DNA of 64,000 nucleotides from Longimicrobiales bacterium (lineage in GTDB: Bacteria > Gemmatimonadota > Gemmatimonadetes > Longimicrobiales > Gaopeijiaceae): the NCBI GenBank assembly GCA_965238005.1, contig OZ250165.1:3424001-3488000 (forward strand). Reading direction: 5' to 3'. The notes below the pieces were generated by a model. It was not told where the DNA came from, ran no database searches, and worked only from the letters and a program-made list of their open reading frames with translations. Position numbers and translations under genes: made by a program. Positions 19,895 through 40,140 of this stretch are shown here, piece after piece; the stretch's first letter is position 1, and each line of letters starts with the position of its first letter.

Positions 19895-19961
19895 GCGCGG
19901 ACGAGCACTCAAGAGACGGCGGCCGATCGAAGGACTGACATGCATAGCCCTAACAAGCGAT

Positions 19962-21639
19962 GAGGCCGTGTGAAAACTCACCATGATTGAACGGGGAGCG
20001 AGCACCTAGGGCGGTGAGCTTGACATTTTGCTGGGAGGGGCGGGAAAGTAGTCGGGTGGGGCGTTGCGGACCTGACAGGGCCGTCTGGAAGCGCCCCGAA
20101 GGGCGAAAAACGGCGCTGAGGACCCCCTCTACGCGAGGGCGTCCAGCAGCTGCGGGACCTCGACGATGTTGAGGACCCGCTTCAGGTTGTAGGCAAGCAC
20201 GGTCAGGCTGAACTCGCCGCGGACCTTCCGCATGCCTTTGAGCAGAAAGTACCCCTGGTCCATCCCGCGCTTCATCGTGCCAAACGGATGCTCCACTAGC
20301 GCTTTGCGCTGCGCGAAGCGCGCCTGCTCCCGCTGGAGCCGTTGCGCCATCTCCTCCATCAGGTGCTCGTCCGCCCACCGTGTGATCTTCCGCCCGTCTT
20401 TGTTGCGCGTACAGCGGGGCCTGAGTGGACACCGCTTACAGGCGGTGGTCCGATAGTTCTTGATGGTGCGCCCGAGCTCGACGGTGGTGGTGCGGTAGGT
20501 GAGCGTCTTCCCCGCAGGACAGCGATAGAGGTCCCGAGTCCGGTCGTAGACGAAGTCATCTTTGGTGAAGAGCCCGCGCTTGGCATTGGCCGAGGTGATC
20601 GGTCGGGGCACCAGCGGCGTGAGGCCCGCCTCCACACACGTCTTGATCTCGGCGCCGTGGTAGTAGCCCCGGTCGGCCACCACCACCGGCGTCACGTTCC
20701 TCAGTACCTCCTGGGCCGCCATGGCCATCGGACTGAGCTGATTCTGGTCGGCGGCGGCGTTGGTGACCGTCTCGGCCACAATCAACTTGTGCTTGGCGTC
20801 GACCGCGGTCTGGACGTTGTAGCAGATCTCGATGCGGCCCCCGCTCATCATCGGCCGACTGTCGGCATCGGTGAGTGAGCGCGCGCTCTCCCCACTCGCC
20901 GCCAGCTCTTGCTGGAGATCCTCGTAGCGCTCCCGGCGCTGCTTAAGCGCCGCAATCTTCTCGCGCAGGGCGTCGGCGCTCGGCCGCTCGGTGCCCGCCT
21001 CCGCCTCGTCCTGGCGCTCCAAGTCTCGCAGATAGCGCGCGATCGTGCGCTCGATGTCCCGTTGTAGCTTGGCCAAGCGGGCCGCGGTGTAGCTCCGATC
21101 CCGGGCATTGACCGCCCGGAACTTGCTCCCATCGATGGCGAGCAACTCGCCGCCAAAGAGGTCCAGCCGCTTGCACAAGAGAATGAACTCGCGGCATACG
21201 CCCTTCAGCGCCTGCGGGTGATCCCGGCGGAAGTCAGCGATGGTCTTGAAGTCGGGTCGCAGTCCTCGCACCAACCACATCAGCTCGATGTTGCGATGCG
21301 TCTCCTGCTCCAGCCGCCGGCTGGAGCGAATGCGGTGCAGGTAGCCGTATAGGTACAATCGCAGGAGATCACCGGGATCGTAGCCCGGGCGGCCCGTATC
21401 TGCAGGCACCGATCGCTGAAAACTGAGCGTGCCGAGATCGAGCTGCGCCACGAAGGCGTCGAGGAAGCGCACTGGGTTGTCAGCGGTGACGTAGTCGTCG
21501 AGGACCTCAGGGAGGAGCACCACTTGGGTGCGATCCCTGCCGGCGATATAGGCCATGGGCGAAGCTCCGAGCAAGGGGAGCACTGGCCAAAACACGGGAC
21601 GTATAATATATGGCACGTCAGGAGTTTTCACACAGGCTC
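19962..21639 (-). mobile_element. IS1182-family insertion sequence
   Basis: 18-bp TIRs (16/18) GAGGCCGTGTGAAAACTC / GAGTTTTCACACAGGCTC; 4-bp CGAT duplication. Confidence 0.93.
20129..21556 (-). CDS. IS1182 transposase
   Basis: GRPGYDP...IRSSRRLE, PDFKTIADFR, AIDGSK, ADRGY, VEHPFG. Confidence 0.95.
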   Translation of the reverse strand: MAYIAGRDRTQVVLLPEVLDDYVTADNPVRFLDAFVAQLDLGTLSFQRSVPADTGRPGYDPGDLLRLYLYGYLHRIRSSRRLEQETHRNIELMWLVRGLRPDFKTIADFRRDHPQALKGVCREFILLCKRLDLFGGELLAIDGSKFRAVNARDRSYTAARLAKLQRDIERTIARYLRDLERQDEAEAGTERPSADALREKIAALKQRRERYEDLQQELAASGESARSLTDADSRPMMSGGRIEICYNVQTAVDAKHKLIVAETVTNAAADQNQLSPMAMAAQEVLRNVTPVVVADRGYYHGAEIKTCVEAGLTPLVPRPITSANAKRGLFTKDDFVYDRTRDLYRCPAGKTLTYRTTTVELGRTIKNYRTTACKRCPLRPRCTRNKDGRKITRWADEHLMEEMAQRLQREQARFAQRKALVEHPFGTMKRGMDQGYFLLKGMRKVRGEFSLTVLAYNLKRVLNIVEVPQLLDALA

Positions 21640-21727
21640 CGATCGCTACAGTCGCGGAAGGAGCGAGTGGCTCGCGCGTGCCGCGCTCGGTGACCAGATT
21701 GGCCGCGCAGTAGAATCGCGAGACGTT

Positions 21728-22140
21728 CTATGAAAGAGAGTGTCAAGAGCGGCTCCGCCCCGGCTGGATGCGAAGCCGTGTTGGGCTTGGCACTCAGCCC
21801 CTTGGTTGGATTAGCCGGATCGTCAGAGAGCGGTGTGCTGGATGAGTCAGTCTTCGTGTGGGCCATGATGATCCTCGCTTGGATGATCGATCCGTCCGGA
21901 CTTGATTGAGTGGACCTGGGTCGTACGACGCGAACCATGGTTCTATCTGAGACTCAGCGGCTTGATACTTCTTCGGGTTCTGCGGAAGGGCCTGGAGTTA
22001 GACTCGTGCCTCGGCATGACTGCGAGCCGGGCGTACGTCTCGCGTTGAGACTGCCTCCCGCACCGTCGTCCGGGGATTCGACGTTCCAAGGGATCGAGGG
22101 TCATACGCTGCACCCTACGCTCCGGGACGACGAACCCCCT
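21728..22140 (-). ncRNA. Predicted bridge/seekRNA of IS110-B
   Basis: Minus strand has CGCGAGACGT (22044-22035) and TCTAAC (22002-21997) matching the two target flanks, and ATAGAAC (21946-21940) matching the element end junction. Confidence 0.75.
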
Positions 22141-23134
22141 CTATATTTGGGGTCGACTCAGCTGGGTCGGATCAAAGACTTCTCCGGTTTTGAGTAGACG
22201 AAGGGTGAGCGCGGCGAGCTTACGCGCCAGCGTCACACGGGCGAGCTCCTCGCGCATCCCGCGCTCGATCATTCGGTGATAGAAATCTTGTAGAGGGCCC
22301 CGACGTCCGATGGCTACGTTGGCGGCGCCCTTAAAGACATTCTTGAGTACGCGATTGTGGTTGGGGTTCAACCCTCGCGTGAGTGGAGGGCGACGACGAC
22401 GACGAGGGCGCCCATCAAACAACTCGTAGTCGGCGCCTTGGTCTTCTTGCGCTGAGTCCGAAGCACATCGAGCTGAGCGTACAGGGTCTCGGCACGTAGC
22501 CGAGCACCGTGCTCGGGTAGCTGTGCGACCCAGGCGGCGCGCCCCTTCGGCTGGTAGACACCGCCGCCCGTGGTTCGGATGGCCCGCGCACGGAAGAGTG
22601 CCTTGAGCCGCAGCATCACGCGCGTGCCGTCCTCGACGAGGTTGCGATAGGCTCGAGTTAGACACCGCCGCCCGTGGTTCGGATGGCCCGCGCACGGAAG
22701 AGTGCCTTGAGCCGCAGCATCACGCGCGTGCCGTCCTCGACGAGGTTGCGATAGGCTCGAGTCAGCTCCTTGAGATCGCCTCGGCCGTGTGCGCCGTGGT
22801 ATACCGCTCGCAGGCTGCCGCACCGCAACTGCTCCGACAGTTCGTCGGCATCGACCTGGTCCCCCTTGTTGCCCGATCGCTTCTCGCCTCTGCGGTCGCA
22901 CACGATCACCCGGTCTACACGAGGACTCAGTAGGTCGTAGAGCCACTGCGCCTGTGTTCCCTCCTCGAACACCACGTGCACCGACCCAGCCATCGCGCTG
23001 AAGAACTCCCTTATCGATTCGTCGCTCGTCTCCACCACGCTGCGCGCGATCACACGCCCCCCTTCGCTCCGAACCGTCGCCACCGTCATTGCCTGGTGCA
23101 CGTCGAGCCCCACATACTTGGTGTTCCGCTTCAT
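22141..23134 (-). pseudogene. IS110 transposase, disrupted
   Basis: YVGLDVH, FEEG, KGDQVDA, ARVTLARKLA; 104-bp tandem duplication (22555-22762) and an internal deletion. Confidence 0.88.
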
Positions 23135-23329
23135 GAGAGCCGCCCTCTGCTGTGGTCCATGGTTGTTTCGCAACTCCACGGTACCCACAGGGGGCGTGCT
23201 TTCAAGTTGTGTTAGAGCGCACCCCGGAACGCTTTCGGTCCTACGTGCGCGAGAAACCTTGCGATAACGAATGAGATACTTTATTTACCACAGTACTCTG
23301 CATCAGTTTGTTCTCCGCTCCGCGGACTC

Positions 23330-24566
23330 ATGAAAGCGACGACCGACCGCATCCTCCAGCTGCTCGATGATCCCGAAGAGCTCGAGGCACTCTATCGGCA
23401 GGCCCCGGAGGCGTTTCGCGAGTCGCTCGGCGAGGCCTTCCGTACGGATCCCGATTCGGTGGCGCTGCGCATATGGCGGGCGCGACTTGAGTACCGCGAG
23501 CCGGGTCAGGGGGCGATTTTGCCTCGTAGGCTGGGTTATGCGATCGCGATCGCCCTGGCCGTCGGTGCGCTCGTCCGACTCCCGGCTCTCTGGCTCGGGG
23601 AGGTACTACCCTCGTCTTGCACCGTCGTGGGTCATCATGGCGCTTGCCGCGTATTTCTGGATCAGGCGTCCCGACCGTAGCCTGCTGATCGCGGGCTTGG
23701 GCCTGTCCCTCGCAGTCGTCGTCTATGTCAGCCGGCTCCCAGACTACACCGACTCAGTAGTAATGGCCCTGGTCCACCTCCCGTTCGTCTTCTGGACCTT
23801 CCTCGGACTGGTGTTCATGGGAGACTCGTGGCGAGAGGCGGATGCGCGGGTCCGCTTTGTTCGCTACAACGGTGAGCTGGTGGTTCTGGCCAGCCTAGTG
23901 GCGCTCGGCGGGATGGTGTTCAGCGGGGTGACGGTCGCCTTGTTTGAGTTGGTTTACGAGAACATCGGGGATTGGTACTTCAGCAACGTCGGAGTCTTCG
24001 GTGCCGCCGCCGTACCCGTCGCCGGGACGTATTTGTACGATGCCGTGTTCAATGAACGGACCGGGATCGCGGCAGTGCTCGCACGCGTCTTCGCCCCCCT
24101 CTTCTTAGTAATGGCGGTCACCTACTTGATTGTCGCGTTCATCGGAGGCGAGAACCCGTTCGTCGACCGTTCCTTCCTGATCACGTTCAACGGCTTGCTA
24201 CTCGTAGTACTTGGCATCTCGGTCTTTTCGATCGTGGAACGCGCCGAGGGGTCGCAGGTGGGGTTGATAGACTACATCAACATTACGCTCGTATTGGTCA
24301 CTCTCGTGATGGACGCGATCGCGCTATCCGCGATTCTTTTCAGGATGGCGTCCTTCGGATTCACGCCGAACCGAGTGACCGTGCTTGGAGCCAATCTGGT
24401 CATCATGGTGCACCTCGCATGGATATGCTGGACCTACGTCGCGCTAGTGCGCCGGAGGGCGGGGTTTGCGGCGATGCGGCGGGTCGTGGGAAGCTACCTC
24501 CCGATCTACGGGGCTTGGGCCGCCGTCGTTGCCTTCCTCCTGCCGCTAGTCTTTGCGTTCGCTTGA
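23330..24566 (+). pseudogene. Multi-TM membrane protein (DUF4153-like), frameshift near 23600 (cassette 2)
   Basis: ORFs 23330 and 23367 join; RYNGELVV, GFTPNRVTVLGAN; ends before AGCTAAC (24616). Confidence 0.7.
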
Positions 24567-24623
24567 GACAGAGCCAGATCTCCCTGCGTCTACCAATAGC
24601 TCTTGCCAAGGCGCGAGCTAACA

Positions 24624-24870
24624 CCATTAAGAAGGACCGGGTCAAGAGTACGCACTGATCCTGAGGCGGCGGGCGATGCCCCCAGATATGGGCGCTCTTG
24701 AACGCACACTCCCGCGGACAACCCGGTTCGGGGGAAGTCTGACTACTTGTGGCCTAACGACTAACGTCACCGCTCTCTTCCTCAGCTTCCCGCCCGACTC
24801 CTCTTATCGCCTCGGAGTCCATGGAGACTGGGCTCGGGCAAGACCCCTGTGCTTCAACTGATTAAAGAGG
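24624..24870 (-). mobile_element. Probable right-end remnant of another IS110-type element (D)
   Basis: Starts right after attC TAACA and has GTCAAGAG at the same 16-nt offset as element A. Confidence 0.4.
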
Positions 24871-25048
24871 AACTCGAGGTGCCAGCCGTCATGCGCGATC
24901 GGCGACCTGGGTAGGGGTCGGGCGTCAGGACCGAGCCCCAGATTCACGGAACATCCTAGCGCTCAACCTCCGCACCACCCTACAATTCCCCCCCGGGTCC
25001 TCCTTCCTCGGACTCGGTTCGGTTTCCCCGGGCCTGAGAGGCAATCCC

Positions 25049-26518
25049 ATGCGCGCACCGAACCTGATGGCGATCCGGTCGACCTTGTTCGTCGCTCTCA
25101 CGACAGCTGCCCTCACCACCCTCGCGCTCGCGGCCGCACCGACCCACGCGGGCGCCCAGGCGACCGCCTCGGATTCCGAGGTCCTGGCTCAGATCGACCT
25201 CTTCTCCGCGTGGCTCGAAGGTCAGATCGAGATCCGTGGACTACCGGGCGCCGTCGGCGGCGTCGTTTCGGGTGATGAGCTGGTGTGGGCTGAGGGCTTC
25301 GGACGTGCGGACGTCGATGCGGATCGGCCCATGGAGACCGATATGCGCTTCCGCATGGCTTCGCACAGCAAGCTCTTCACCGCAACTGCTATCATGCAGC
25401 TCCGGGAACAAGGCAAGGTTCGGCTTGATGATCCCGTCACCGATTACCTGCCATGGTTCACCTTCCAGAGCGCCGCTCCTGACGATCCTCCGGTCACCAT
25501 CGAGCACCTGCTAACGCACAGCTCCGGGCTCCCGCGCGAGGCCGGTTCGCACTGGACCGACTTCGACTTCCCAACCCCCGAGGAGGTCCTCGAGTTGATG
25601 CCCGATCGTCAGGCCCCCTTCTCACCCGAAGTCCGCTGGAAGTACTCGAACCTCGCCTACACCATCGCCGGCATGATCGTGGAGGCGATCAGCGGGATGA
25701 GCTGGGCGGACTACCTTAAGCAGAACATATTTGACCCGCTCGGCATGAGCTCGTCTAGCGTCGATCTGCCGGACGCGAAGATGGCTACTGGGTACGGCCG
25801 TCGGATGCCCGACGGCTCTCGGCAGGTCTTTCCGTTCGTCGACGCGCGCGGGATGGCCGCCGCGACGGGACTCACGTCGACGGTCGAAGACATGGCCCGC
25901 TTCGTGTCTGCCCAGTTTCGGACGGGGGCCCGCGGCGGTGACCGGCTTCTGAGGACGGCATCGCTTCGGGAGATGCATCGTGTGCGCATGCTCGAAAACA
26001 CGTGGACGAGCGGCCAAGGCATCGGATTCAGCGTGCGACGGATCGACGGGAAGCTCTATGTCGGCCACGGCGGCGGATACCCGGGCTACACGACGAACAC
26101 GACGATCCAGCTCGACTCGAAGGTTGGTGTAATCGTTCTAACGAACACGAATGACTCGAACCCTTCCCAGATCGCGGAGCAGCTCATGGGCACGGTCGGC
26201 GAAGCTGTCGCCTCCGCGACCACAGTCGAGCCGGAGGTCGTCGCGTGGGATCCCGCGTGGGAGCGCTTCGCCGGTGTGTACCGGAGCCGCGGCGGCGAGA
26301 CGCGAGTCCTCGTCATGAACGAACGGCTGGTGACGATGAATCCGTGGGGCACGAGTATCGGGGACCCGACCCAACTCGAACTGATCGGCGACGGGACGTT
26401 TCGCATGGTGGCGCCCACAGGTGGTGGCCCGGTCGGCGAGATCGTCCGGTTCGTCGAGGAGAACGGCGAGGTCGTACGGATGATTACAGGAGATTCGTAC
26501 TCCGTACGCGTGCGCTAG
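25049..26518 (+). CDS. Serine hydrolase, beta-lactamase/PBP family, secreted
   Basis: Signal peptide; MASHSK (SxxK), LLTHSSGL, YSN, HGGG. Confidence 0.9.
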   Translation: MRAPNLMAIRSTLFVALTTAALTTLALAAAPTHAGAQATASDSEVLAQIDLFSAWLEGQIEIRGLPGAVGGVVSGDELVWAEGFGRADVDADRPMETDMRFRMASHSKLFTATAIMQLREQGKVRLDDPVTDYLPWFTFQSAAPDDPPVTIEHLLTHSSGLPREAGSHWTDFDFPTPEEVLELMPDRQAPFSPEVRWKYSNLAYTIAGMIVEAISGMSWADYLKQNIFDPLGMSSSSVDLPDAKMATGYGRRMPDGSRQVFPFVDARGMAAATGLTSTVEDMARFVSAQFRTGARGGDRLLRTASLREMHRVRMLENTWTSGQGIGFSVRRIDGKLYVGHGGGYPGYTTNTTIQLDSKVGVIVLTNTNDSNPSQIAEQLMGTVGEAVASATTVEPEVVAWDPAWERFAGVYRSRGGETRVLVMNERLVTMNPWGTSIGDPTQLELIGDGTFRMVAPTGGGPVGEIVRFVEENGEVVRMITGDSYSVRVR

Positions 26519-26695: not shown

Positions 26696-26876
26696 AGGAC
26701 GGGTCCCTCCACGAGCTGACCCGTGTTGCTCACGATGGCGATCACTGAATACGTTGCATGGGCGTCGATTCCTGCGACAAACATGGCTGGCCTCCTTGGG
26801 TTCGGGTGCCGCAGGCCTTGAGTAAGCACAGTGCAACACCCAGCCCGAGTGAGGTCCGCCCTTCGCCTTATAAGAT
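26696..26876 (-). mobile_element. IS110-type element C, left-end remnant
   Basis: MFVAGIDAHATYSVIAIV; abuts attC L' CAGAATCGCGAGACGTTATGC. Confidence 0.75.
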
Positions 26877-27286: not shown

Positions 27287-27465
27287 TCCTGCCTCCAACC
27301 ACCCATATGACATTTTGGCACGACCCCCGGCTTTTGGATGAACCATCAACTCAGATGGGATCTCTATCACGCGCACCTAGAAGCCAAGGTCGATCTGCAG
27401 AGGATCAAGCCGCTCCGCAGAAAAGACCTGGCTAGAACTGCGTAGCGCGGGCGCGCCACATAACA

Positions 27466-27924
27466 CTTATCAGGCCCCCGGAATCAAGAGCGCGCATGTC
27501 CCCCAGCGTGCCGCGGAGCGGCGCGTAGAAGAGTGAGCATCGGTCGCCGAGTCCTCTGACTTGGTTTCCGTAGGCAGGTGCGAGCGTAGGGAGCCTCTGC
27601 ACCAAACACTTATCGAGGTTCAACCGCCGGGTGCCCTTCGAGACGAGCTCGAAGGCGGCGGAGCAGGAGCCTCGTGTCCGCTCCTGCGACCTAGAAATTC
27701 ATCTGTACCCTCGTGCCGTCCGACTCCATTCAAGGTGAGCGGGCTCAGGCCGTGTTGTGAGGCCAGGCCAGTTAGCTCCGGGCTCGGGTGAGGGGCAGAG
27801 TCCATGGTGGACCGATGGCGATGTGTGTGAGGAGCGGGAGGAGGCGTCCAATCAAGCGAAGCGGCTGCCAACCATCCGCTGTCGGCTCGAGTTATATGTC
27901 AGGCTCGCCGACCTCCCCTCCCCG
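27466..27924 (-). ncRNA. Predicted bridge/seekRNA of IS110-A
   Basis: Minus strand has ATAAC (27895-27891) and TCGCTTG (27859-27853) matching target TAACAAGCGA, and GATAAGTG (27614-27607) matching the end junction. Confidence 0.7.
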
Positions 27925-28971
27925 TCAGGTGCGGGTATAGAAGCGTTCGGTGTCGAATGCCTGCCGGTTCTTGAGCATGAAGTAGGTCGCCCGGCCGATG
28001 CGAGCGGCGAGGATGCTGAGCGCTTTGCCCTTGCCGTGGCGGCGCGTGAGCTTCTTCAGATGAGCCTGGCCGCGGGCGTTGTCCCTGAGGAAGAGCACGG
28101 CGGCCTCGCTGAAGGCCCATTTGAGATGAGCGTTCCCGATCTTGGCTCCTCCGCTGCCGACCCGCTTGCCTGCACTGCGGTGCTCGGGCTTAGCGAGTCG
28201 ACAGTAGGAGCTGAAGCGCTGCACTGTGCTGAAGCGAGCGATGTCGTGGATCTCATAGAGCAGGGTGAGCGCCAGGATGCGGCCGACGCCGGGGATGGTT
28301 CGGAGCCGCTCCAGCGTGTCGAAGTCGTGGACACGGGCTTCCTGTTCGACCGTGTGCTCGAGCGCTCGGATCACCGGGTCGTAGCGATCGGCCAGGGCGA
28401 GGTCCGCCTCGATCGTCCTTTGGGTCATGGGATCATCGAATGCCTCGGCCAGGCCCTGGCGGTTCTTCTTGTACAGGAGCTGACCGGAGGGTCGAGGCAG
28501 GTTGTACTGATGGAAGGTGTTACGGATGTGGGCGAGCAGTTCGCCTCGCTTGCGCACGAAGTAGAGTCGGCGCCGGAGCACGTCGCGTGTGGCGCGCATC
28601 CCAGGTGGATAGACGTAGGCGACGGGAAAGGCGCCGCCTCGCAGCAGGACCGCCGTCTTGTGGGAGTCGATCTTGTCGTTCTTGGCCTTGGCCCCATGAA
28701 TCGCCTTCATGTAGAGCGCATGGCCGAGCACGAAGTGGATCTGCTCGCGAGCACACAGATCGGCCAGCCAGTACCAGCAGAAGATGCACTCGCTGCCCAC
28801 GACGAGGTCTGAACGGTAGGGCTCGAGGGCGCGAAGGAGTGCCTCGCGCTCACAGCGTAGCCTCTTGTGCAGGCGTATCTTGCCCTGGCAGTCCAGGACG
28901 CAGAGGTAGAGTGTGCGAGCATGAAGGTCGATGCCACAGTAGTATCGATGCTGGCCTGTGTAGAAGCGCAT
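27925..28971 (-). CDS. IS110 recombinase/transposase (intact ORF)
   Basis: RuvC-like DEDD (GIDLH, SEC, KNDKID), IPGVG, RSAG serine, GNAHLKWAF. Confidence 0.95.
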   Translation of the reverse strand: MRFYTGQHRYYCGIDLHARTLYLCVLDCQGKIRLHKRLRCEREALLRALEPYRSDLVVGSECIFCWYWLADLCAREQIHFVLGHALYMKAIHGAKAKNDKIDSHKTAVLLRGGAFPVAYVYPPGMRATRDVLRRRLYFVRKRGELLAHIRNTFHQYNLPRPSGQLLYKKNRQGLAEAFDDPMTQRTIEADLALADRYDPVIRALEHTVEQEARVHDFDTLERLRTIPGVGRILALTLLYEIHDIARFSTVQRFSSYCRLAKPEHRSAGKRVGSGGAKIGNAHLKWAFSEAAVLFLRDNARGQAHLKKLTRRHGKGKALSILAARIGRATYFMLKNRQAFDTERFYTRT

Positions 28972-29452
28972 GGTTCCCCTCCTGGGTTGGATGAATCGAG
29001 TTTGGCGCTCTGATTCTTCCGCCCTCTCTTCGAGAGGTCCAGGAGGGGGCCTGCATGAGCAGGCTTGCTACTGGCGCGTGCGACATCAGGCTCGCGCGCT
29101 TCGCTTGCAGTCGCCATCTTGGTCGCCGGCCGAACCCCGAATAGGTGCTCGAGTCCCTGAGGACTGCACGAGCGAGCTTGCGTGCAGTGGCGATGCGAGC
29201 GATGCGCCAATCGAGCCGATCCTTGAGCCGGTCGTAGTACTCGCTGAGCCAGCTTTCGGGAGATCGGCCGTGATGGATGACGACGGTCTGGACGAAGGCG
29301 TTTCGGAGCTAGCGATTGGCACCGGCCGGGATGGGCCCGTAGCGGACCGTCATCCCGGAACGAGCAGCACTGCGTCGATCGCATCGTTCTTGTAGTTGGC
29401 TTCGGCGATCGCGGCTTCTGAACAAGCGCTCCGTCTTTGCTCACCACCGCAA

Positions 29453-30909
29453 GAAGCTGTCCCAACCGTAGTTGAAGGTTCCTGATAGGGGAGAAAGAAA
29501 AGTGGTGGCTCCGGGGGTCCCGGGCCGATAGGCTCGGGTAGGCAAAAACCCCAACACGGAGCCACCACGATGAAGAGAACGTACGAGGTAAGGGATCGGG
29601 CGGACAAGCGCGCGATCAGGGAGTTCCTGAAGCGGGAGGGGCAGTTTCTGCTTCCGATGCTTGAGCTCGTGGAGCAGACGGAGGTCGCGATCGACGAAGT
29701 CATCCAGGTGATGGGACGAGCGACGATCGAAGCGGTGCTGGAGATGAGCGCCGAGGGTGTGGCAGGCGTGAAGCAGGCAGGTCGGTCACGAGCGGAAGAC
29801 GACACGGTGTGGTATGGCCGGCAGGGTGGTGTGGTTTACCTGTCGGACCGGAAGGTGCGTGTGGAGCGGCCACGGCTCAGGCGCCGGGGCGCCGGGGAGG
29901 GTGGCGAGGTCGAGGTGCCGGCGTACGCAGCGATGCGGAGACCGGGCGCCGTGGCGGATCGGATGCTCGAGGTCCTGATGGCGGGGGTGAGCACGCGGAA
30001 GTACGGCCGTGTGATCGGTGAGATGGCCGACACGGTCGGGGTGAGCAAGTCGGCGGTGAGCCGTGAGACGGTCGAGGCCTCGGAGCGCGTGCTGAAGGAG
30101 CTGATGGAGCGCCGGCTGGATGCGTGGGACCTCCTGGTGATCTACCTGGACGGGATCCAGATGGGCTCGCACCACGTGCTTGCTGCGGTAGGCGTGGACT
30201 CAGACGGAAAGAAGCACGTGCTGGGCGTGAGGGAAGGAGCGAGTGAGAACGCCGAGGTGACCAGCGCGCTCCTAGAGGATCTGGTCGAGCGCGGCCTGGA
30301 CCCGGGCAGGCGGCGGCTGTTCGTGATCGATGGCTCGAAAGCGCTCAGGAAGGCGATCGAGAAGGTGTTCGGCCAACGTCACCCCATCCAGCGCTGCCGC
30401 AACCACAAGCTCCGCAACGTGCTGGGTCATCTGCCGAAGGATCAGCATCCTCAGGTGAAGGCGGCGTTCCGGGCGGCGATGAAGCTGGACGCGAAGCAGG
30501 GCGAGCAGAAGCTCGAGCAGCTCGCCCGATGGCTCGAGCGCGACCACCCCTCGGCCTCGGCCAGCCTACGCGAAGGCCTCAGCGAGATGTTCACGATCAA
30601 CCGGCTCGGCCTCCCGCCGCGGCTGAGGAAGTGCCTGGGCTCGACCAACCTGATCGACAGCACCCACTCGGGCGTAAGACAGAAGACCCGCAGGGTGACC
30701 AACTGGAAGAACGGAGCGATGGCCTTGCGCTGGGCTGCGGCCTCGTTCGTGGAGACCGAGAAGACCTACCGGAGGATCATCGGCTACGACCAGCTCTGGA
30801 TGCTCAGGGCCCACCTCGACGACCATGAACCGGTGGCCGAAATGAGAAAGGCAGGCTAACAAGGAGACTCTCCGGAGCCACCACCTTCAACTGTCAGCGG
30901 GACACCATC
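29453..30909 (+). mobile_element. IS256-family insertion sequence
   Basis: Imperfect TIRs (TGTCCC...AGTTGAAGGT); 8-bp duplication CACCGCAA at 29445 and 30910. Confidence 0.93.
29570..30859 (+). CDS. IS256 transposase
   Basis: GVSTR, YLDG, VIDGSKAL, QRCRNHKLRN, STNLID. Confidence 0.95.
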   Translation: MKRTYEVRDRADKRAIREFLKREGQFLLPMLELVEQTEVAIDEVIQVMGRATIEAVLEMSAEGVAGVKQAGRSRAEDDTVWYGRQGGVVYLSDRKVRVERPRLRRRGAGEGGEVEVPAYAAMRRPGAVADRMLEVLMAGVSTRKYGRVIGEMADTVGVSKSAVSRETVEASERVLKELMERRLDAWDLLVIYLDGIQMGSHHVLAAVGVDSDGKKHVLGVREGASENAEVTSALLEDLVERGLDPGRRRLFVIDGSKALRKAIEKVFGQRHPIQRCRNHKLRNVLGHLPKDQHPQVKAAFRAAMKLDAKQGEQKLEQLARWLERDHPSASASLREGLSEMFTINRLGLPPRLRKCLGSTNLIDSTHSGVRQKTRRVTNWKNGAMALRWAAASFVETEKTYRRIIGYDQLWMLRAHLDDHEPVAEMRKAG

Positions 30910-31115
30910 CACCGCAACGACCAGATACGTTGTGTGCGCATCGATTCCTGCGACATACATGATGGCCTCCTGGTGGTTGGCAGCCGCAGGTTCTTGGAGA
31001 AGTACCAGCGTAGTGCGCCGGCCATTGGGAGGCCATCCGCTTTATAAGGTCAGCAGAAGCGCAAAGTCGTTAGGCATCCGAGAACCGAGAGGGGCAGTGA
31101 ACGCATTCCATCTTC

Positions 31116-31601
31116 TTGGTCTGTTTAGCGGTCGTGGTAGCTGCGATCGGTTGGAAAGTCGCCGGTCTGCTCGGAGTCGTGCTCGGCGTCCCGGCCGGAA
31201 TCCTCGTGGGAGTCTATGGTCTGATAGGGACGTTCCTGGCCTTGGCGTGGCTCGAGACTCGCCGCGACCAGCTAGCTCTGCGCAGGTCATTCGGCCCGTA
31301 TTGGCGGGCCGAATACCGCGCAGATTGGGAGGAACTCAAGGCGTCGCTTCGCCCCGGCGCCGTTGTGAATGGAGTTGTGGTCAGAGTGCGATATCACGGC
31401 GCCTTCCTTAATCTTGGGAAAGGATTTCCGGGGCTTATCCAGGCCTACCAAATCGTGCATGACGGCTCGGAGCTGCCGTCCGTTGGTGACAACGTTCGTG
31501 CATGGGTTAAGGAGTATGATGAGGACTGTCGGACGGTAGTGCTCACGATGAACGAAGGGTCGCTCTCAGGACTCGGTGACCTCCGACCCCCGGATGCCTA
31601 A
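31116..31601 (+). CDS. Membrane-anchored S1 (OB-fold) domain protein (cassette; start uncertain)
   Basis: N-terminal TM; GAVVNGVV...HGAFLNLG...GLI...VGDNVRAWV; cassette GTTAGGC(31069)...GCCTAAAC(31596). Confidence 0.65.
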   Translation: MVCLAVVVAAIGWKVAGLLGVVLGVPAGILVGVYGLIGTFLALAWLETRRDQLALRRSFGPYWRAEYRADWEELKASLRPGAVVNGVVVRVRYHGAFLNLGKGFPGLIQAYQIVHDGSELPSVGDNVRAWVKEYDEDCRTVVLTMNEGSLSGLGDLRPPDA

Positions 31602-31604
31602 ACA

Positions 31605-32165
31605 CTTATCAGGCCCCCGGAGTCAAGAGCACGCACGTCCCCCCCCTCCCCCCGACGCGTCGCGGAGCGGCGCGCTAGGCGAAATAAGCATCGGTCGCCG
31701 AGTCCTCTGACCTGGTTTCAGTAGGCAGGTGCGAGCGTAGGGAGCCTCTGCACCAAACACTTATCGAGGTTCAACCGCCGGGTGCCCTACGAGGCGAGCT
31801 CGAAGGCGGCGGAGCGAGAAGTCTTCGTTTCGATTCCTCGCGACCTAGAAATTCATCTGTACCCTCGTGCCGTCCGACTCCATTCAAGACGTAGGTTAGG
31901 GAAGGCGCCGCCTCGCAGCAGCACGGCCGTCTTGTGCGAGTCGATCTCGTCGTTCTTGGCCTTGGCCCCGTGGATCGCCTTCTGCCCTGCGAGTCCAGGA
32001 CGCAGAGGTAGAGTGTGCGAGCGTGAAGGTCGATGCCACAGTAGTATCGATGCTGGCCCGTGTATGAGCGCATGGTTCCCCTCCTGGGTTGGTTGAATCG
32101 AAGTGTCATGCTCTGATTCTTCCGTCCTCTCTTCGAGAGGTCCAGGAGGGGGCCTGCATGAGTAT
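31605..32165 (-). mobile_element. IS110-A deletion derivative in attC
   Basis: Both ends (CTTATCAGGCCCCC...GGGGGCCTGCATGAGTAT) with CA core; transposase mostly deleted. Confidence 0.88.
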
Positions 32166-32274
32166 CAAGCAGTTGCTGCTGTCGCGGTAGGCGGATGGGT
32201 CCGGAGCACTCGCCTCGCAGCTCGCGCTCCGGGTGGACATGGTGGCGCGCAGCAGAACTGCAAAGTCGTTAGGA
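32166..32274 (+). other. attC remainder
   Basis: gcagttgctgctg...cagcagaactgc-aaagtc-GTTAGGA. Confidence 0.88.
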
Positions 32275-33235: not shown

Positions 33236-33528
33236 TCCTAACAAGGGTTTGAAGCTGTCCGGGTAGGCTGCTTAGGTCCGGAGCACTCGGCTTGCACCTC
33301 GCGCTCCGGGCGAACATGGTTGTCCGGTTGGCGGCCTTGGTAGTGAGTAGTGCCCGCCGGTCTGTGCATTCAGTGGCGACAATTCTCTTCGGACCCATAT
33401 TGGTCTGGGTGTTGGTATTGGCCACGACCTGGGCGTACTAGCGAGCGATTGCTGCAGTCGCGGTAGGCTTGGAAGGTCGCGAGCTGCGCTTGCGGTCCCC
33501 ATACTGGTGCGCAGCAAAGTCGTTAGGC
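33236..33528 (+). other. Half attC, cassette scrap and degenerate attC
   Basis: TCCTAACaaggg...; gcgattgctgcag...gcgcagcaaagtcGTTAGGC. Confidence 0.7.
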
Positions 33529-34225: not shown

Positions 34226-34322
34226 GCCCAAGAAGCGATTGCTGCTGACGCAGTCAGCGTGAGGGTCGCGTGCTGCGCACGCGGGGGGTAATGTGGTGCG
34301 CAGAATCGCATATCTGTTAGAG
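34226..34322 (+). other. attC (degenerate R'')
   Basis: GCCCAAGaagcgattgctg...cagaatcgcatatctGTTAGAG. Confidence 0.8.
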
Positions 34323-34504
34323 AGCCCTCGTCAGGCGCCTGGCCCGAGGCTGGGTCCGCGATCGTATCCACGCGGCTACTGCTTCCTCATCGAGCTTGCC
34401 GGAAGCCAAGGCCAGCATTCTCTGAACTACTTCGTCTTCGGGGGCGATGAAGTCGAATCCGTTGAGGCCGAGAAAGATGACGGCCGCCAACAACGAGATC
34501 CGCT

Positions 34505-34603
34505 CTCTAACGAGTGTTTGCTACTGTCGCGGTAACGCTGCGGGTCGCGCGCTACTCGCGCGCAGCCCAGATTGATGCGCATCAGAAGCCCGAGACGTTA
34601 GGC
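34505..34603 (+). other. attC (uninterrupted)
   Basis: CTCTAAC...tttgctactg...catcagaagc..gagacGTTAGGC. Confidence 0.85.
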
Positions 34604-34631
34604 TGCACGAGCAACGTAAGATCGTGCGTCT

Positions 34632-35357
34632 TTGGGAAAAGAACCCTTGCAGAATTCCTCAGACCGTCAGCTCCGCCGAATCGGGGCCATTGCAGCCATG
34701 CTCGGCCCGCTGGTGCTGCTCGTTTCAACGCTTATGCATCCGCGTGAGGCCGACCCCAACGACGCAGTTGCAGCTTTCACAGAATATGCTGCCGATCGTC
34801 TTTGGGTAGGAACTCACCTTGGTCAATTCCTCGGGGTGGCGATTATCGTGGCGGCGTTAGTGATGCTTTCTCGCTCACTGGAGGAAGGAAAAGCCGCGGC
34901 CTGGTCGCGCATCGGCTTAGCCGGAGCAATCGCCACTCTTGCTTGCACAGCCGTCCTTCAGGCTGTCGATGGAGTGGCCCTCAAGTTCATGGTAGACCGA
35001 TGGGCTGCGGCGCCAGCGGAACAACAACCAACGATCTTTGAAGCTGCCTTTGGTGTTCGGCAAGTTGAGGCCGGGTTGGCGAGCCTGACGAGTTTGCTCT
35101 TCGGGATCACGGTAACAGCGTATGGTGTCGCCATGCTTCTTAGCCCGATCTACCCAGCTTGGGTTGGCCTCTTGGCGATAGTTGATGGGCTCGGGACCGC
35201 AGCTGGTGCCGTCGTCCTGGCCTACGCCGGGTTTTCGGAATTGATGATGACGATAAGCATGCCTGCCAACCTCCTCCTGCTGGTGTGGATGATCGTCGTT
35301 GGCGTTTTGATGTGGACTCGAGGCGGCAAAGAGCACGCGAGCAACAGTGGGGCCTAA
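34632..35357 (+). CDS. Multi-TM membrane protein (DUF4386-like; cassette)
   Basis: About 6 TM helices; stop overlaps R'' GCCTAAC (35352). Confidence 0.75.
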   Translation: MGKEPLQNSSDRQLRRIGAIAAMLGPLVLLVSTLMHPREADPNDAVAAFTEYAADRLWVGTHLGQFLGVAIIVAALVMLSRSLEEGKAAAWSRIGLAGAIATLACTAVLQAVDGVALKFMVDRWAAAPAEQQPTIFEAAFGVRQVEAGLASLTSLLFGITVTAYGVAMLLSPIYPAWVGLLAIVDGLGTAAGAVVLAYAGFSELMMTISMPANLLLLVWMIVVGVLMWTRGGKEHASNSGA

Positions 35358-35638
35358 CTTATCAAGAGCCCCGTGGATCGCCTTCATGTAGAGCCATGGC
35401 CGAGCACGAAGGGGATCTGCTCACGAGCACAGAGATCGGCGAGCCAGTACCAACAGAAGATGCACTCGCTGCCCACCACGAGGTCTGCACGGTGGGGCTT
35501 GAGGGCGCGAAGCAATGCCTCGCGCTCACAGCGCAGCCTCTTGTGCAGGCGTATCTTGCCCTGGGAGTCCAGGACGCAGAGGTAGAGCGTGCGAGCGTGA
35601 AGGTCGAAGATGCCACAGGAGGGGGCCTGCATGAGTAT
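35358..35638 (-). mobile_element. IS110-A deletion derivative in attC
   Basis: CTTATCA...transposase scrap (DLHARTLYLC)...GGGGGCCTGCATGAGTAT-CA. Confidence 0.85.
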
Positions 35639-35732
35639 CAAGCGCTTGCTGCAGTCGCGGTAGCGTGGAGGGTCGCGCGCTTCGCTTGCGGTCTGCGTCT
35701 TAGGCGCGGAGCAGAATGGCGAGACGTTAGCT
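35639..35732 (+). other. attC remainder
   Basis: caagcgcttgctgcag...gagcagaatggcgagacGTTAGCT. Confidence 0.85.
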
Positions 35733-35787
35733 GGACTCCGATAGGCTCTGAGAGGATGAGAGCGTTGGAGGCCGCCGCGAGCCGCCG

Positions 35788-36279
35788 TCAGTTTCGCTTT
35801 GTCGTGTCCGGTGAGAGCTCGCGGAGGCTGTCTTCCAGCTTCATGTACCAGGGATCGTCGACGCTGTCGCGTTGGAAGTAGAGTATGACCTCCCGCTCGT
35901 TGATCAGCGCGTTCAGGAGGAGCTTCACCTTCACGCGCAACTTCACCCGGGCCCGGAGCCCGCCCGAGTCGATCTCTGCGAAGACGACCTCGTAGTCCTT
36001 GATGTCCAGGGCCTCCGGTCTCACCGTGAAAAGGCGCTGGATAAGGAACGGAATATCGACGCTGTCGCGTATGTCGGGTGCGTGGTAGCTCGCCGCGCTC
36101 ACGAAATCCTTGAACTGGATGTCCTCCAGGAACGCAAGCGCCACGCGCCGAAGTGCGCCGCGATCCCCGCCGAGGGCCAGGCCCAGGGTTGAGAAGGCGC
36201 CCCCGGAGACGTGCGCTACGCCGAGGTAGCCTCCCAGGAGAAGGGCCAGCACCAACAGGGCGGTCACGGCCTTTTTCAT
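35788..36279 (-). CDS. Hypothetical exported/membrane-anchored protein
   Basis: N-terminal hydrophobic helix; overlaps the permease stop. Confidence 0.7.
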   Translation of the reverse strand: MKKAVTALLVLALLLGGYLGVAHVSGGAFSTLGLALGGDRGALRRVALAFLEDIQFKDFVSAASYHAPDIRDSVDIPFLIQRLFTVRPEALDIKDYEVVFAEIDSGGLRARVKLRVKVKLLLNALINEREVILYFQRDSVDDPWYMKLEDSLRELSPDTTKRN

Positions 36280-37013
36280 GTCACGACCTCACGCCGGGGG
36301 AGCAGGGACGCCGTAGCGGCGGCGACGAGGACCGTGGACATGGCCAGCAGTACGACCAGAAATAGCGCAACCATGTGCCAGCGAGGCTCGAGGGCGGCGC
36401 TCTCCTCGAAGACGCGAAAGGCCCAGTGTACAGGCATCGCCCTTTCCACGGCGGCGACGACGTCGCTATAAAGATTATTGGGGATCGCCAGCTCGGAGAA
36501 CAGTATTTGGGGGAGGAGGAGAAGCGGCACCGCGAACACCGCCCGCTCCTGGGTCGTCGCCAGGGCGCTGACGAGGAGGCCGAGGCCGGTGCCCGCCAGC
36601 GAGGCACCGAAGAGTGCCAGAAGCTCCAGCGGCATGGGACCTCGGAGCTGGAGGTGCCACTCCACCGTCCCCTGCAACAGGACGACCTGAGCCGCGCCGA
36701 GGGCGGCCAGCACCCACACCTTGGAGGCGACGTAGGCGCCGGGGCGGAGGCCGAAGAGGCGCTCCCGCTCGAGGATGGCGCGCTCCTTTACGATTTCCCG
36801 GCAGGCGTTGATGCACCCGAACCAGACGGCCGCCAGGCAGAGCACGAAGTAGAGCGCGGGCGTGTCACGCTCGATGGACCCCCACACCACGGCGCACAGC
36901 CATCCGATGAGGGGGGCCTGCGCCAGAACCAGGACCAGGCCACCCATGTCGCCGAGCCAGCAGTCCCGGTAGCGGGCTGCCAGGATGTGCGACTGCCGGC
37001 GCGGCGTGCTCAC
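36276..37013 (-). CDS. ABC-2 type transporter permease
   Basis: WFGCINACREIVKERAILERER, LLPQILFS. Confidence 0.88.
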   Translation of the reverse strand: MSTPRRQSHILAARYRDCWLGDMGGLVLVLAQAPLIGWLCAVVWGSIERDTPALYFVLCLAAVWFGCINACREIVKERAILERERLFGLRPGAYVASKVWVLAALGAAQVVLLQGTVEWHLQLRGPMPLELLALFGASLAGTGLGLLVSALATTQERAVFAVPLLLLPQILFSELAIPNNLYSDVVAAVERAMPVHWAFRVFEESAALEPRWHMVALFLVVLLAMSTVLVAAATASLLPRREVVT

Positions 37014-37921
37014 GGAACCTCCGGGCTCCCCAGCCGAGCCTTCAGGCGGTCGAGGGCTTCGTCAGTGCTGGTCAGGCCTCTCTCCCCACTTGCTCGGGCG
37101 GCTTGCGAACGGGGTGCGGGCCCCGGGCGGCGGAGAAACGTCCGCTGGTCTGGGTCCGCGCTGGCGGTGAGGTGCCAGGCCGACGGCGATTGCTTCTCGA
37201 GCTGTCGGAAGAGTTCGGCGTACCGATCGACCCGGAAGTACGAGAGCGCTTTTCGGGGCGGCCCGAAGAAAGCGACGTATCCGCCCACCAGCACGCACAG
37301 TGCTTCGGCCCGCTCGATGCTCTCCATGGCGTGGGTGGCCACGAGGACGATCCGGCCGGTCCCCGCGACCTGGGACAGGAGTGCCATCGTACGCGCCTCG
37401 AGACCGGGGTCGAGACCCGAAGTCGGCTCGTCGAGGATGAGCAACGGCGGGCCGGTCAGGAGCTCGAGGGCCACTGACACGCGCTTTCTCTGGCCACCGG
37501 AGAGCTGGCGAATGCGGACTCCGGAGCGGTCACCAAGGTCGACCTGGTCGAGGACCTCCGCGATCCGGGACTGGCGCTCCTCCGCGCTCGTCCCCGGCAT
37601 GCGCAGCTCAGCGGCATAGGTCAGCTCGCGCCGCACGGTGAGCCCCCGGTGGAGCGTGTCATCTTGGGGCACATAGCCGACCGGGCCCAGCTTCGCCACG
37701 GGGAGCGGTCCCATCATCACGGACCCCTCGTCAGGATCCCGAAGGCCCAGGAGCGCCTTGATAAGCGTGCTCTTTCCCGCCCCCGACGGACCGATAAGCG
37801 CGCACATCTCCCCGGGGTGCAGCGTCAGGTCCACCATCTTGAGAATGCGGGTGCCGCCGGCAGACACACCCACGTTCTCCACGCGCAGGGGACCGGGGAG
37901 AAGGCTCGTCGTCGAGGCCAC
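37010..37921 (-). CDS. ABC transporter ATP-binding protein
   Basis: GPSGAGKS, LSGGQRKR, LDEPTSGLD. Confidence 0.92.
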   Translation of the reverse strand: MASTTSLLPGPLRVENVGVSAGGTRILKMVDLTLHPGEMCALIGPSGAGKSTLIKALLGLRDPDEGSVMMGPLPVAKLGPVGYVPQDDTLHRGLTVRRELTYAAELRMPGTSAEERQSRIAEVLDQVDLGDRSGVRIRQLSGGQRKRVSVALELLTGPPLLILDEPTSGLDPGLEARTMALLSQVAGTGRIVLVATHAMESIERAEALCVLVGGYVAFFGPPRKALSYFRVDRYAELFRQLEKQSPSAWHLTASADPDQRTFLRRPGPAPRSQAARASGERGLTSTDEALDRLKARLGSPEVP

Positions 37922-38199
37922 GCGGGGCGGTTCCGGCTACGATGGGGACAGCGAGGCGCTCAACGCGATGTCCTCGTCGAGGGAAATGGAGGATGTCTCA
38001 ATTTCACGATGTGCCGCAACCCAACGAATTAGCAAGCGTGGCAATTTCATAGGGCTCGGGATCCGCTCGACGGCCGCTCGCGTGGGGCGAGCCCGCGCGA
38101 TCGGAAGGATGACTCCCTGGTCTTCTTGGACACAAACCATCGTACGTATGTTCACGATGTAAAGATACGTACGCCTCTCCGGCGAGCAGCTCGGCGAGC

Positions 38200-38245
38200 T
38201 TCATGACAAGCGCTTGCTACCGTCGCGGTAGGCGTCGGGCTCGCT
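38200..38245 (+). other. attC left-half remnant
   Basis: catgACAAGCGCTTGCTACCGTCGCGGTAG. Confidence 0.6.
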
Positions 38246-38249
38246 GGCG

Positions 38250-38600
38250 ACGCGAGGGGGATGCCGTTTACCTCGGTGGTGCCGGTAAGGTGCGGATGTC
38301 CGGCGACGATCAGGTCCACATCGGCCGAATCCAGCTCACGAGCCATCGAGAGGATCTCTCCGCTGCAGCGATTTTCGTTGCAGGACCAACCCGCGTGAGC
38401 GGTGAGGATGGTGAGGTCGGGGCCTTCGGCGCGCACCTGCTCCGGCACGCCGTCGATCGCCGCCCTCCCGCGACCGAAGGCGAGGCCTGCGACGCGTGGA
38501 GCATATACGATGCGCTCGGCGCTAGACGTCATGAACCCAATGAAGGCCACGCGCAGCCCCGAGAACTCCGTAATGTGATAGGGCCGTGCCGAATTGGGGG
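38250..38600 (-). pseudogene. 5'-nucleotidase/metallophosphoesterase fragment
   Basis: AFIGFMT...ILTAHAG...VDLIVAGHPH. Confidence 0.65.
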
Positions 38601-38619
38601 GGCAAACGCGCCGCGCATG

Positions 38620-38891
38620 GCCTAACCAGCGATCGCGGGCATCCTATGCGCTCAGCATCTCTGCCACGTCATTCCGCCTGGCACCAAGACGGAGCAGAGT
38701 CCGGATCATAAGGTTCACTGACACGCTCGGATGAGCCACCTCCATCAAGGGCAATTTGTCTGCCCCTCAGGCTCGCGCGCTTCGCTTGCCGTCGGCAGAT
38801 TGGACGAGCAGCAGAGCTTGAGGCACGCCGCGCGTGCCGGAGACGGCCGAGCGCCGCGAAGCGGGCGCGGGTCAATCGCGGGACGTTAGAC
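38620..38891 (+). other. Scrambled attC remnants
   Basis: GCCTAACcagcgatcgc; gagcagcagagc; aatcgcgggacGTTAGAC. Confidence 0.6.
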
Positions 38892-38911
38892 GGCAGACAC
38901 GAAGAGGAAGC

Positions 38912-39514
38912 ATGCGACCTTGGTCCCGAGCCACTGTCGAGGAGTACCGCCGACTAACCCTTCGTGCTCACAGCCTCCTGGCCGATGTGCCTCTACACGA
39001 TGTCTGGCGAGTTGCCCTTCCGGGCGGGAGCCCCTCGTGCACCATGCAGGATGTTCGCTCCGTGTTGCACGCCGCGAGGAGGTCACAGCCTCTGAGCCCT
39101 CCGGTTCGTGCCCTCTTTGCCCTCCGCTGGTTGCTGGGGCGTTTGTTTCGATGGGATGGTCCTCTGTCGGAGCCAGAGGAGTGGTCTTTTCGAACGCGGC
39201 TCACCGAGGCTGATCGCCAGCAGTCGAGCGTGAAGCCGGGTACGCTCGATGGGCCGTTCGCCGTCCTGTACGTTCACGCGACGGAGGCAGTCAGTGAGAT
39301 CCGGAACGCGACGTTCCACGCCTTCCTAGTCTGGGCGCTGGAGCCAGCGCCGGATGGCTATCAGCTCTTCTGGGCGATTCACGTCCTCCCGGTCAGCGTC
39401 TGGACAAAGCCTTATCTGGCGCTGATCGATCCCTTCCGCCGCTGGTTGGTGTACCCGTCGTTGTTGCGCCGCATCCATGAAGCGTGGTCCCGCGAGTTCA
39501 AGTCTGCTGCCTAG
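38912..39514 (+). CDS. DUF2867-like protein (cassette)
   Basis: VPLHDVW, ALFALRWLLGRLFRWD, YLALIDPFRRWLVYP. Confidence 0.7.
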   Translation: MRPWSRATVEEYRRLTLRAHSLLADVPLHDVWRVALPGGSPSCTMQDVRSVLHAARRSQPLSPPVRALFALRWLLGRLFRWDGPLSEPEEWSFRTRLTEADRQQSSVKPGTLDGPFAVLYVHATEAVSEIRNATFHAFLVWALEPAPDGYQLFWAIHVLPVSVWTKPYLALIDPFRRWLVYPSLLRRIHEAWSREFKSAA

Positions 39515-39696
39515 TGTTCCGTTTCCGGAGTTCGCGAGCCACCAAGAGGGTCGGGGCGCCGTGGGATCAAGGCGGGACGACGCGGCGTAGCGCAAGCGGG
39601 CACCGCGCGAAGCGTAGTCGCAAGGAGTCCCAACGCCGAGCCCACGGATGCACCGTGTCCTCGACTGGCCGAGACACTTTGGTAACGGGACACTAG
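39511..39696. mobile_element. CTAG-flanked MITE inserted in an attC R'' box
   Basis: CTAG-TGTTCCGTTTCC...GGTAACGGGACA-CTAG; removal gives GCCTAGCAAGCGATCACTGCTG...CAGCAG. Confidence 0.82.
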
Positions 39697-40140
39697 CAAG
39701 CGATCACTGCTGGCGCGGAGGACTCCCGAGTCGCACACTGCGTGGGCGGTCAGCTGCGAGGCGCGCAGCAGAGCCAGAGGCACGCATCGTGTGCCGGTGA
39801 CGACCGACCTCAAGAAGAACGGATGGTTCGAGGAGGAGGTCTTGCCGATGCTCCGGGAGCGAGTGAGGCAACTGGTTCTCTAAATCTGGGGCCCGAGTCA
39901 ATGGAGGGAACTGATCGATACGCATGGTCGCTGCTATTCGGACGAGGATTTCGCGCTCATTCTCCAGCGAGCGGCAGAACTGCAGGACCGAGCTGGTGGG
40001 GCTGCTGCCAATTGCCGGACCGGACCGACGGTGCGTCGACCACCGCTGGTCGCCGGAGGCATCGTCATCGATTCCCTGCAACCGGCCTCCCTCTTGGAGG
40101 GGCTCCGAGAAGAGATCGCCCGGTACCTGTTTCGTTGGCC

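Follow-up and report, generated by a model that had tools for sequence, protein, structure and literature searches.

Several IS110-family lineages probably use RNA guides to enter different positions of the attC repeat in a Longimicrobiales integron

The IS1111-attC group of insertion sequences (ISs) is described as monophyletic and as inserting near the 5' end of attC (PMC3001079), and ISKpn4, ISPst6 and ISPa25 are described as sharing one common insertion position (PMC11187229). The stretch analysed here, 64,000 nucleotides (nt) of contig OZ250165.1 from a Longimicrobiales bacterium (hereafter the window), carries an integron whose attC sites are interrupted at several other positions, or registers, by IS110-type elements of four kinds, called A, B, C (with sublineages C1 and C2) and D. 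The window lies within the host genome, a single contig of 4.84 Mb labelled G000; other G labels denote genomes and L labels denote loci. An integrase gene scoring above its model cut-off, a putative attI and an array of attC sites make the locus a sedentary integron of this bacterium. We consider it probable (about 0.8), judging from sequence comparison, that several IS110-family lineages have converged on attC through RNA-guided targeting.

The four boxes of an attC site are named R'', L'', L' and R'. A covariance model trained on 14 attC sites, of which the window supplied two, was used to find sites, and junction sequences were read as well; an earlier heuristic scan, which gave 11 candidates and missed the window sites, was superseded by profile and covariance searches. 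Genome-wide, attC-like hits amount to 29 sites of about 100 nt in 4.84 Mb. Seven interrupted attC lie between 19948 and about 39779 (Table 1), and two of these carry double insertions, one of IS1182 and B, the other of A and C2 with an IS256-family element inside C2. The first-pass annotation of this DNA had counted at least seven interrupted sites and two hit twice, and sequence and covariance model agree with it. The first of the seven, when reconstructed empty, forms a full hairpin in silico. The same annotation held only 34226-34322 and 34505-34603 to be whole: the latter does keep a full hairpin, but the former reads AAG in R'', and 33436-33528 is a third uninterrupted site. The site at 34505-34603 has no exact match to the targets of A, B or C.

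Element ends were fixed by whole copies in relatives. The entry point of A and D is the CA of TAACA in R'', that of C1 the second CA of GCAGCAGAAT in L', with C2 3 nt upstream of it, so that A, D, C1 and C2 have the core CA in common. B goes in at the GTT of R', the IntI crossover, and comes out with GTT again, which means that GTTAG is rebuilt beyond it. The coding pieces of A, B, C1 and C2 are all on the minus strand, antisense to the array, and homology to whole copies shows D to be antisense as well. Junctions and whole copies thus uphold the earlier placement of A and D after R'' (TAACA), that of B at the R' GTT and the antisense orientation of all the IS110s, while the placement of C at L' (CAG) holds for the box and is refined to two registers 3 nt apart with a CA core. 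In the window D is a terminus of 65-70 nt, with guides readable in the whole D copies; the B transposase is disrupted by one deletion and one duplication, and the left-end junction of A is missing a few bases. The registers recur across taxa: that of the A clade in 81 loci examined, that of D in whole copies, and that of B in left junctions ending in GTT in 67 of 68 cases. A third C sublineage (G000 3782602; L159) sits in the central part of a long attC, at CAGCTCGCG, with a matching guide in L158/L159.

C1 (202.9 bits), C2 (200) and D (199.7) all exceed, as does A, the cut-off of the IS110 model NF033542. For B, PF01548 is found on the window piece, and PF01548 together with PF02371 on all 120 homologues listed. 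The non-coding region downstream of the transposase measures about 460 nt in A, 425 in B, 300-360 in C and 230-270 in D, and subterminal inverted repeats reach at least 9 nt in A, about 11 in C and about 6 in B, those of D being short and imperfect. Collapsed repeats might have produced such nested junctions during assembly, and the duplication in the window B copy is indeed absent from one contig of another run. However, contigs of run X1 (which may be the source sample) span several junctions without differences, and double hits recur elsewhere, A with B in G011 and C1 with B in L179 and L200; we find an artefact of this kind hardly credible.

How specific are these elements for attC? The first-pass annotation had named a majority of genomic copies outside attC as the finding that would undo it; this is not what we found for the IS110-type elements, since 15 of the 16 testable copies in the host genome stand in attC-like sites, a larger share than chance would give, all antisense (A 3/3, B 3/3 by the left junction, C 8/9, D 1/1 by the R'' half only). 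This count covers IS110-type copies with a native junction, attC being called by a covariance-model hit, except at the C ends at 2844927, 3782602 and 4171316, which were scored by eye from the L'-spacer-GTT tail; it leaves out two B copies with the far end only (both then followed by GTTAG) and fragments without ends. Among the 15 B copies of G011, ten adjoin a model hit, two lie behind remnants of an attC, and three stand at guide-matching sites without a stem. All seven C1 right junctions read in G358 and all five left junctions found there are attC; in the arrays of that genome (L346-L349) many attC sites are filled by C1, and the integrase carries an internal TAG.

In the wider clades, a strict L-box test accepts 22 of 61 sites of clade A and 11 of 780 controls, and a strict box test accepts 12 of 47 sites of clade B and 25 of 2250 controls; these fractions are lower bounds, and many clade members may target other sequences. 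A lineage model puts 21 of 67 clade B copies in attC. Clade A spans many phyla, with the closest relatives of A in Longimicrobiales and Gemmatimonadota. No B relative was found on plasmids at E 1e-20. On a Vibrio campbellii plasmid (L187), an attC of the Vibrio type holds an A-clade element and, further along, a second IS110 end, which is an example of a doubly hit site outside Gemmatimonadota.

Downstream of the transposase, A, B, C1, C2 and the whole D copies carry two short segments, one per target arm, with the top-strand match 5' of the bottom-strand match, which is the order of IS1111 seekRNAs. Across genomes the guides of A, B and C co-vary with their targets. With identical guides collapsed and 10000 shuffles, the left arm of B matches at 120 of 182 positions against a shuffled mean of 69.6 (26 guides, 52 rows, 98 loci) and its right arm at 41 of 50 against 27.3; for A the figures are 39 of 64 against 25.3 (left) and 54 of 76 against 30.8 (right), and for the right arm of C 58 of 72 against 32.6. 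Each of these five counts was reached by at most 1 of the 10000 shuffles. The B set behind 120/182 excludes guides starting with TAC; a cleaner extraction read 64 of 69 junctions, and in 49 of the 64 at least 5 of the 7 positions agree with the left guide. The guides of C1 and C2 differ exactly as their registers do.

A reciprocal pattern appears among empty sites. For the B guide of G011, GCAGAGACGT, 12 sites of its own kind are occupied and none empty, and one G000-kind site is empty; for B of G000, own-kind sites are two occupied and none empty, with three G011-kind sites empty, all small numbers. G274 carries a third variant of the B guide and was left out for this reason. In an alignment of 16 sequences the guide region of B forms three helices with both guides unpaired, and 8 of 23 pairs are compensated, a count taken on the alignment from which the structure was derived. 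We infer that A to D make and use such RNAs, and the earlier suggestion of RNA-guided targeting at different registers gains support from the covariation and from the empty sites.

We propose that the attC repeat serves as target to several IS110-family recombinases, each with a small RNA encoded downstream of the transposase, two segments of which would pair, by analogy with seekRNA, with both strands of a target, about 11-16 nt long, that surrounds a short core. A change of guide segments would re-aim the element; by this route at least three deep lineages (A/D, C and B), besides the IS1111-attC group, would have come to use conserved attC boxes, A and D R'', C1 L' (with C2 beside it and other C members in the central loop) and B the crossover GTT of R'. 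The sequence rather than the folded hairpin would be recognised, as some copies stand at guide-matching sites that have no stem. Transposases that recognise the folded, single-stranded attC, the RNA matches being incidental, would also account for the position of all elements on the bottom strand, like that of group IIC-attC introns (PMC3001079), and for five B copies in whole attC (L225, L227, L238, L239 and L241) in which only 0-2 of the 7 positions agree with the element's own left guide. Recognition of the fold is nevertheless very improbable in our view: guides co-vary with targets, the three stemless sites are 3 of 15 B copies in G011, and neighbouring attC with the same stem but a different spacer are empty.

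Did these lineages reach attC independently? A, B, C and D are 18-33% identical in pairwise comparison. In a tree of 67 proteins (quick LG+G4), B is sister to a group outside attC (B2), and C branches on its own. Three plasmid elements that do not use attC form the sister group of A, and D branches next; the ISUnCu1-type element of pIEC33019 is nested with IS4321, IS5708 and ISPsy16. Approximately unbiased (AU) tests on 38 rows of the tree (quick LG+G4, with groups picked after seeing the first tree) reject all five groupings: A-D as a single clade (p 1e-44), the same four together with the ISUnCu1 type (1e-6), A+D+C and B+C, with a weaker rejection for A+D (0.007). A common ancestral target is probable for A and D, and we count them as one origin because they share register and guide layout. 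The earlier claim that independent lineages converged on one repeat therefore stands for B, C and A/D and is doubtful for A against D; its wording that sites are partitioned among elements has to go, as it implies exclusion, yet registers co-occur in one site and competition is not indicated.

A single ancient attC-targeting IS110 ancestor, followed by re-aiming and loss without any convergence, would explain the CA core and antisense orientation common to A, D, C1, C2 and the ISUnCu1-type element. It would also fit the register and guide layout that A and D share despite the non-attC group sister to A, a placement which implies that loss of attC use does happen, and gain and loss are indistinguishable from counts of changes. 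Against this history, B is sister to the non-attC B2 and several deep-branching B members target elsewhere, the known group nests among the relatives of IS4321, IS5708 and ISPsy16, and monophyly is rejected in every grouping tested. We regard a single origin as unlikely.

Several results weigh against convergent RNA-guided targeting. The shuffles ignore kinship; the left arm of C is not significant (17 of 28 positions against 12.8, a count reached by 805 of 10000 shuffles, with 4 guides), and in 9 of the 64 B junctions no more than 2 of the 7 positions agree with the left guide. Single-sequence folds are no more stable than shuffled sequences (z -1.4 to +0.9). The B transposase scores 120 bits on NF033542, below the cut-off of 140, and the tree has long branches and few outgroups. 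The lone exception in the host genome is an intact C1 copy at 47-49 kb, outside attC, and beyond Longimicrobiales attC placement is visible for part of the A and B clades only. The same C1 copy (47265-48970) carries its right end as a 248-nt tandem, with the joint at the target-like guide segment of its own RNA gene.

The other inserted elements behave differently. The first reading had IS1182 in L'' and the miniature inverted-repeat transposable element (MITE) in R''; they are there, more precisely with the IS1182 duplication straddling the border of spacer and L'', and the MITE in a CTAGC variant of R''. Genome-wide copy sites do not bear out the idea that these two or the IS256-family element are attC-specific or guided by RNA. 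In five of six IS1182 copies YTAAC lies exactly 3 nt from the 4-nt duplication (TAAC background 0.0005 per position), and the six sites include one clear attC and one attC-like half site; this YTAAC-N3 preference is that of a sequence-specific DDE element, which would reach attC because R'' happens to satisfy a short DNA preference. No close IS1182 relative was found in 150 family genomes at E 1e-120. The MITE contacts attC in one of its 45 paired copies and otherwise occupies CTAG-like sites; none of the eight IS256 copies shown is at an attC site, their flanks are unrelated, and the window copy is within C2. Both hit the array by accident.

Further observations concern these and similar elements. 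The IS256 copy of the window has many counterparts of 99-100% identity in G001 and G002. Two inverted IS1182 copies in G000 (29601-31278 and 348148-349825) have swapped flanks, with CGAT and AGCA split between them, which implies that about 320 kb have been inverted; G001 (L175) has the corresponding site in its empty form. A 1.35-kb DDE-type element (405-aa open reading frame, presumably IS481-like), at L052 9812-11163 and in four more G011 copies, lies about 9 nt upstream of R'' in all five, and is possibly another attC-directed element. A 2.5-kb unit with a tyrosine recombinase and an IS91-family transposase (L054 12370-14870) is inserted at the GTT of attI and attC; it has four copies, and two attI-like sites of G011 are likewise followed by it. 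Also in G011, a 1.4-kb unit with five repeats was considered as a shuffled cassette and proved to be a transposon, hence no evidence of shuffling.

What would the insertions do to recombination? The effects on IntI are predicted throughout. The remnant left after an A insertion still scores as attC, but its R'' reads ATC for AAC, and in the IntI1 assay reported by Frumerie 2010 (PMC2811028) a GTT/ATC site recombined at 6e-6 against 2.2e-3, a loss of about 370-fold. C and IS1182 separate the attC arms, and deletions damage further sites. B keeps R'', both L boxes and GTT in place; as these boxes are kept, B should spare its site, given what is reported of the R box (PMC7439510), though in the window that site is already split by IS1182. 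Insertion of A, D, C or IS1182 would thus likely inactivate an attC, whereas B is unlikely to do so and may ride with cassettes. Insertions and deletions together leave one canonical attC, which would bring the shuffling of resident cassettes probably near zero, while new cassettes would still be able to enter through attI and IntI.

The earlier claim of a frozen array is therefore retained in part: freezing is predicted, mostly and for mixed reasons, through A, D, C and IS1182, but it is unlikely through B, and several sites are broken by deletion alone. The seekRNA paper describes circle formation without the equivalent re-joined target (PMC11187229); among the joints listed here, from assembled contigs only and hence uninformative, none is an IS-circle or restored-attC joint.

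With respect to freezing alone, the array may already have been idle and decaying, the elements gathering in attC as harmless landing places, a symptom rather than a cause. The sites at 33236, 33436, 38203-38891 and 40141-40841 are broken by deletions without any IS, most IS copies are themselves deleted, and two relatives whose arrays are laden with ISs seem to have a broken integrase (an in-frame match only from residue 96 in G011, and the TAG in G358). On the other side, IntI and attI look intact here, seven sites carry an element, and the A junction is the very mismatch measured to reduce recombination. We give an idle array somewhat less than an even chance.

A broader reading, which we hold tentatively and think rather doubtful, makes attC a recurrent attractor for RNA-guided recombinases, with B in a site-sparing register, carried along by IntI, and escape variants of attC surviving. 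B at the crossover GTT, with GTTAG rebuilt, would head the next cassette, and the upstream hairpin would still recombine. L225, L227, L238, L239 and L241 would have come to lie behind a new attC once IntI had cut out the cassette first entered, which may be the origin of their poor guide match; loose pairing or a guide acting in trans may explain it too. Surviving attC would be guide-escape variants, and spacer diversity would partly reflect an arms race with IS110 guides. With one exact pattern, no B was found directly behind an attI of this type in 301 family genomes.

The integron itself has an IntI 42% identical to IntI1 across 305 aa, with the catalytic motifs aligned; this alignment and the TIGR02249 score agree with the earlier view that IntI looks intact. 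The attI is assigned from position and conservation, the sequence preceding its GTT being conserved in two sites of G011, and its function is putative. At 17672-18860 intI lies upstream of attI on the strand of the cassettes, the reverse of the usual layout, as it does in G011. The DNA that separates the D remnant from the C1 remnant encodes, at 25049-26518, a serine hydrolase of the beta-lactamase family (PF00144). A palindromic repeat around CGTACGTAT...ATACGTACG at 38120-38205 recurs in 11 other places, sometimes immediately before an attC; considered as an IS110 end, it was rejected (it is a palindrome without transposase, mostly not near attC), and it is possibly an operator or promoter.

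Table 1. Integron components, attC sites and inserted elements in the window
Feature	Position	Strand	Details
intI, integron integrase	17672-18667	+	TIGR02249 326.8 bits, cut-off 265
Putative attI	18790-18860	+	crossover GTT at 18854; position and conservation
attC 1, with IS1182 (19962-21639) and B (21728-23210)	19948-23217	+	covariance model, junctions
IS1182-family element	19962-21639	-	4-nt duplication CGAT; NF033551 424.5 bits; 6 genome copies
Element B, IS1111-like layout, at GTT of R'	21728-23210	-	whole copy in G011
Predicted seekRNA of B	21965-22085	-	left-arm guide 22034-22044, right-arm guide 21997-22003
attC 2, with D terminus	24616 onward		remainder of site lost
Element D terminus, after TAACA	24624-24681	-	80% over 70 nt to whole copies L151/L156
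attC 3, with C1 left-end remnant	up to 26897		5' part lost
C1 left-end remnant, at second CA of GCAGCAGAAT (L')	26697-26876	-	
attC 4, with A (27466-29059) and C2 (~29128-31050; IS256 29453-30909 inside C2)	27458-31075		
Element A, at CA of R''	27466-29059	-	open 348-aa IS110 transposase 27925-28971; NF033542 184.6 bits, cut-off 140
Guide-like segments of A	27850-27897	-	TAAC-side match 27891-27896, CAAGCG-side match 27853-27858
C2 remnant, one CA upstream of C1 register	29128-31050	-	~93% to G002 copy, four pieces; far end deleted
IS256-family element inside C2	29453-30909	+	8-nt duplication; NF033543
attC 5, with A remnant	~31594-32274		downstream attC remnant 64.9 bits
Internally deleted A copy in attC 5	31605-32165	-	
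attC without IS, R'' variant, deletion beside L'	33436-33528	+	49 bits; no attC-type fold
Uninterrupted attC, R'' = AAG for AAC	34226-34322	+	L' without one CAG
attC with paired AAC/GTT and complete hairpin	34505-34603	+	only such site of the array
attC 6, with A remnant	35352-35732		attC remnant 50.4 bits
Internally deleted A copy in attC 6	35359-35638	-	
attC 7, with MITE (39514-39693)	~39507-39779		
MITE, at CTAG in R'' variant (CTAGC)	39514-39693	.	45 paired genome copies

How do these elements relate to described systems? Targeting of attC by IS1111 elements, their antisense orientation, seekRNA guidance and the hypothesis of immobilisation are already known. With the IS1111-attC group, represented here by L186, whose element is named ISUnCu1 (PMC10232235), A to D have in common an IS110-family transposase, a long downstream non-coding region, the attC target, antisense orientation and the CA core. 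They differ in register, as L186 enters at TAACAATT[CA], 5 nt downstream of the core of A and D, and A to D use four other registers (A/D 5 nt upstream, the C registers at L', B at R'); they are also only 22-30% identical to it over short stretches and fall outside its clade, as judged from this one representative. Like ISPa21 in Pseudomonas aeruginosa ST235 integrons, an IS110 element in attC proposed to immobilise cassettes despite an integrase, they would restrain an array, but ISPa21 is one element at one register, and its authors call the experimental evidence limited (PMC11616780). Group IIC-attC introns likewise enter attC on its bottom strand, against the direction of cassette transcription, though they are retroelements with another chemistry (PMC3001079), and none was found in this array.

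In the literature searched, which lay outside ISfinder and did not cover the founding papers, so that some registers may already be on record, we found neither several lineages at several registers nor an element at the crossover GTT. What would be new is that a known kind of attC parasite is extended from one lineage and one position to several. If four more lineages hit other registers across many phyla, IS110 elements would act as a general brake on environmental integrons, and their insertions would also cause attC calls to be missed. Each register leads to a distinct prediction for IntI, namely an ATC mismatch, a split site or a spared site. The arrangement described for seekRNA and bridge RNA (PMC11187229, PMC11208160), two target matches downstream of the transposase with the top-strand match 5' of the bottom-strand one, and natural re-aiming between relatives, is also that of the RNAs predicted here; the difference is that here the register shifts within one repeat (C1 against C2) or follows attC spacer variants (B). 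This natural series of guides could be useful for working out guide rules in divergent bridge and seek recombinases.

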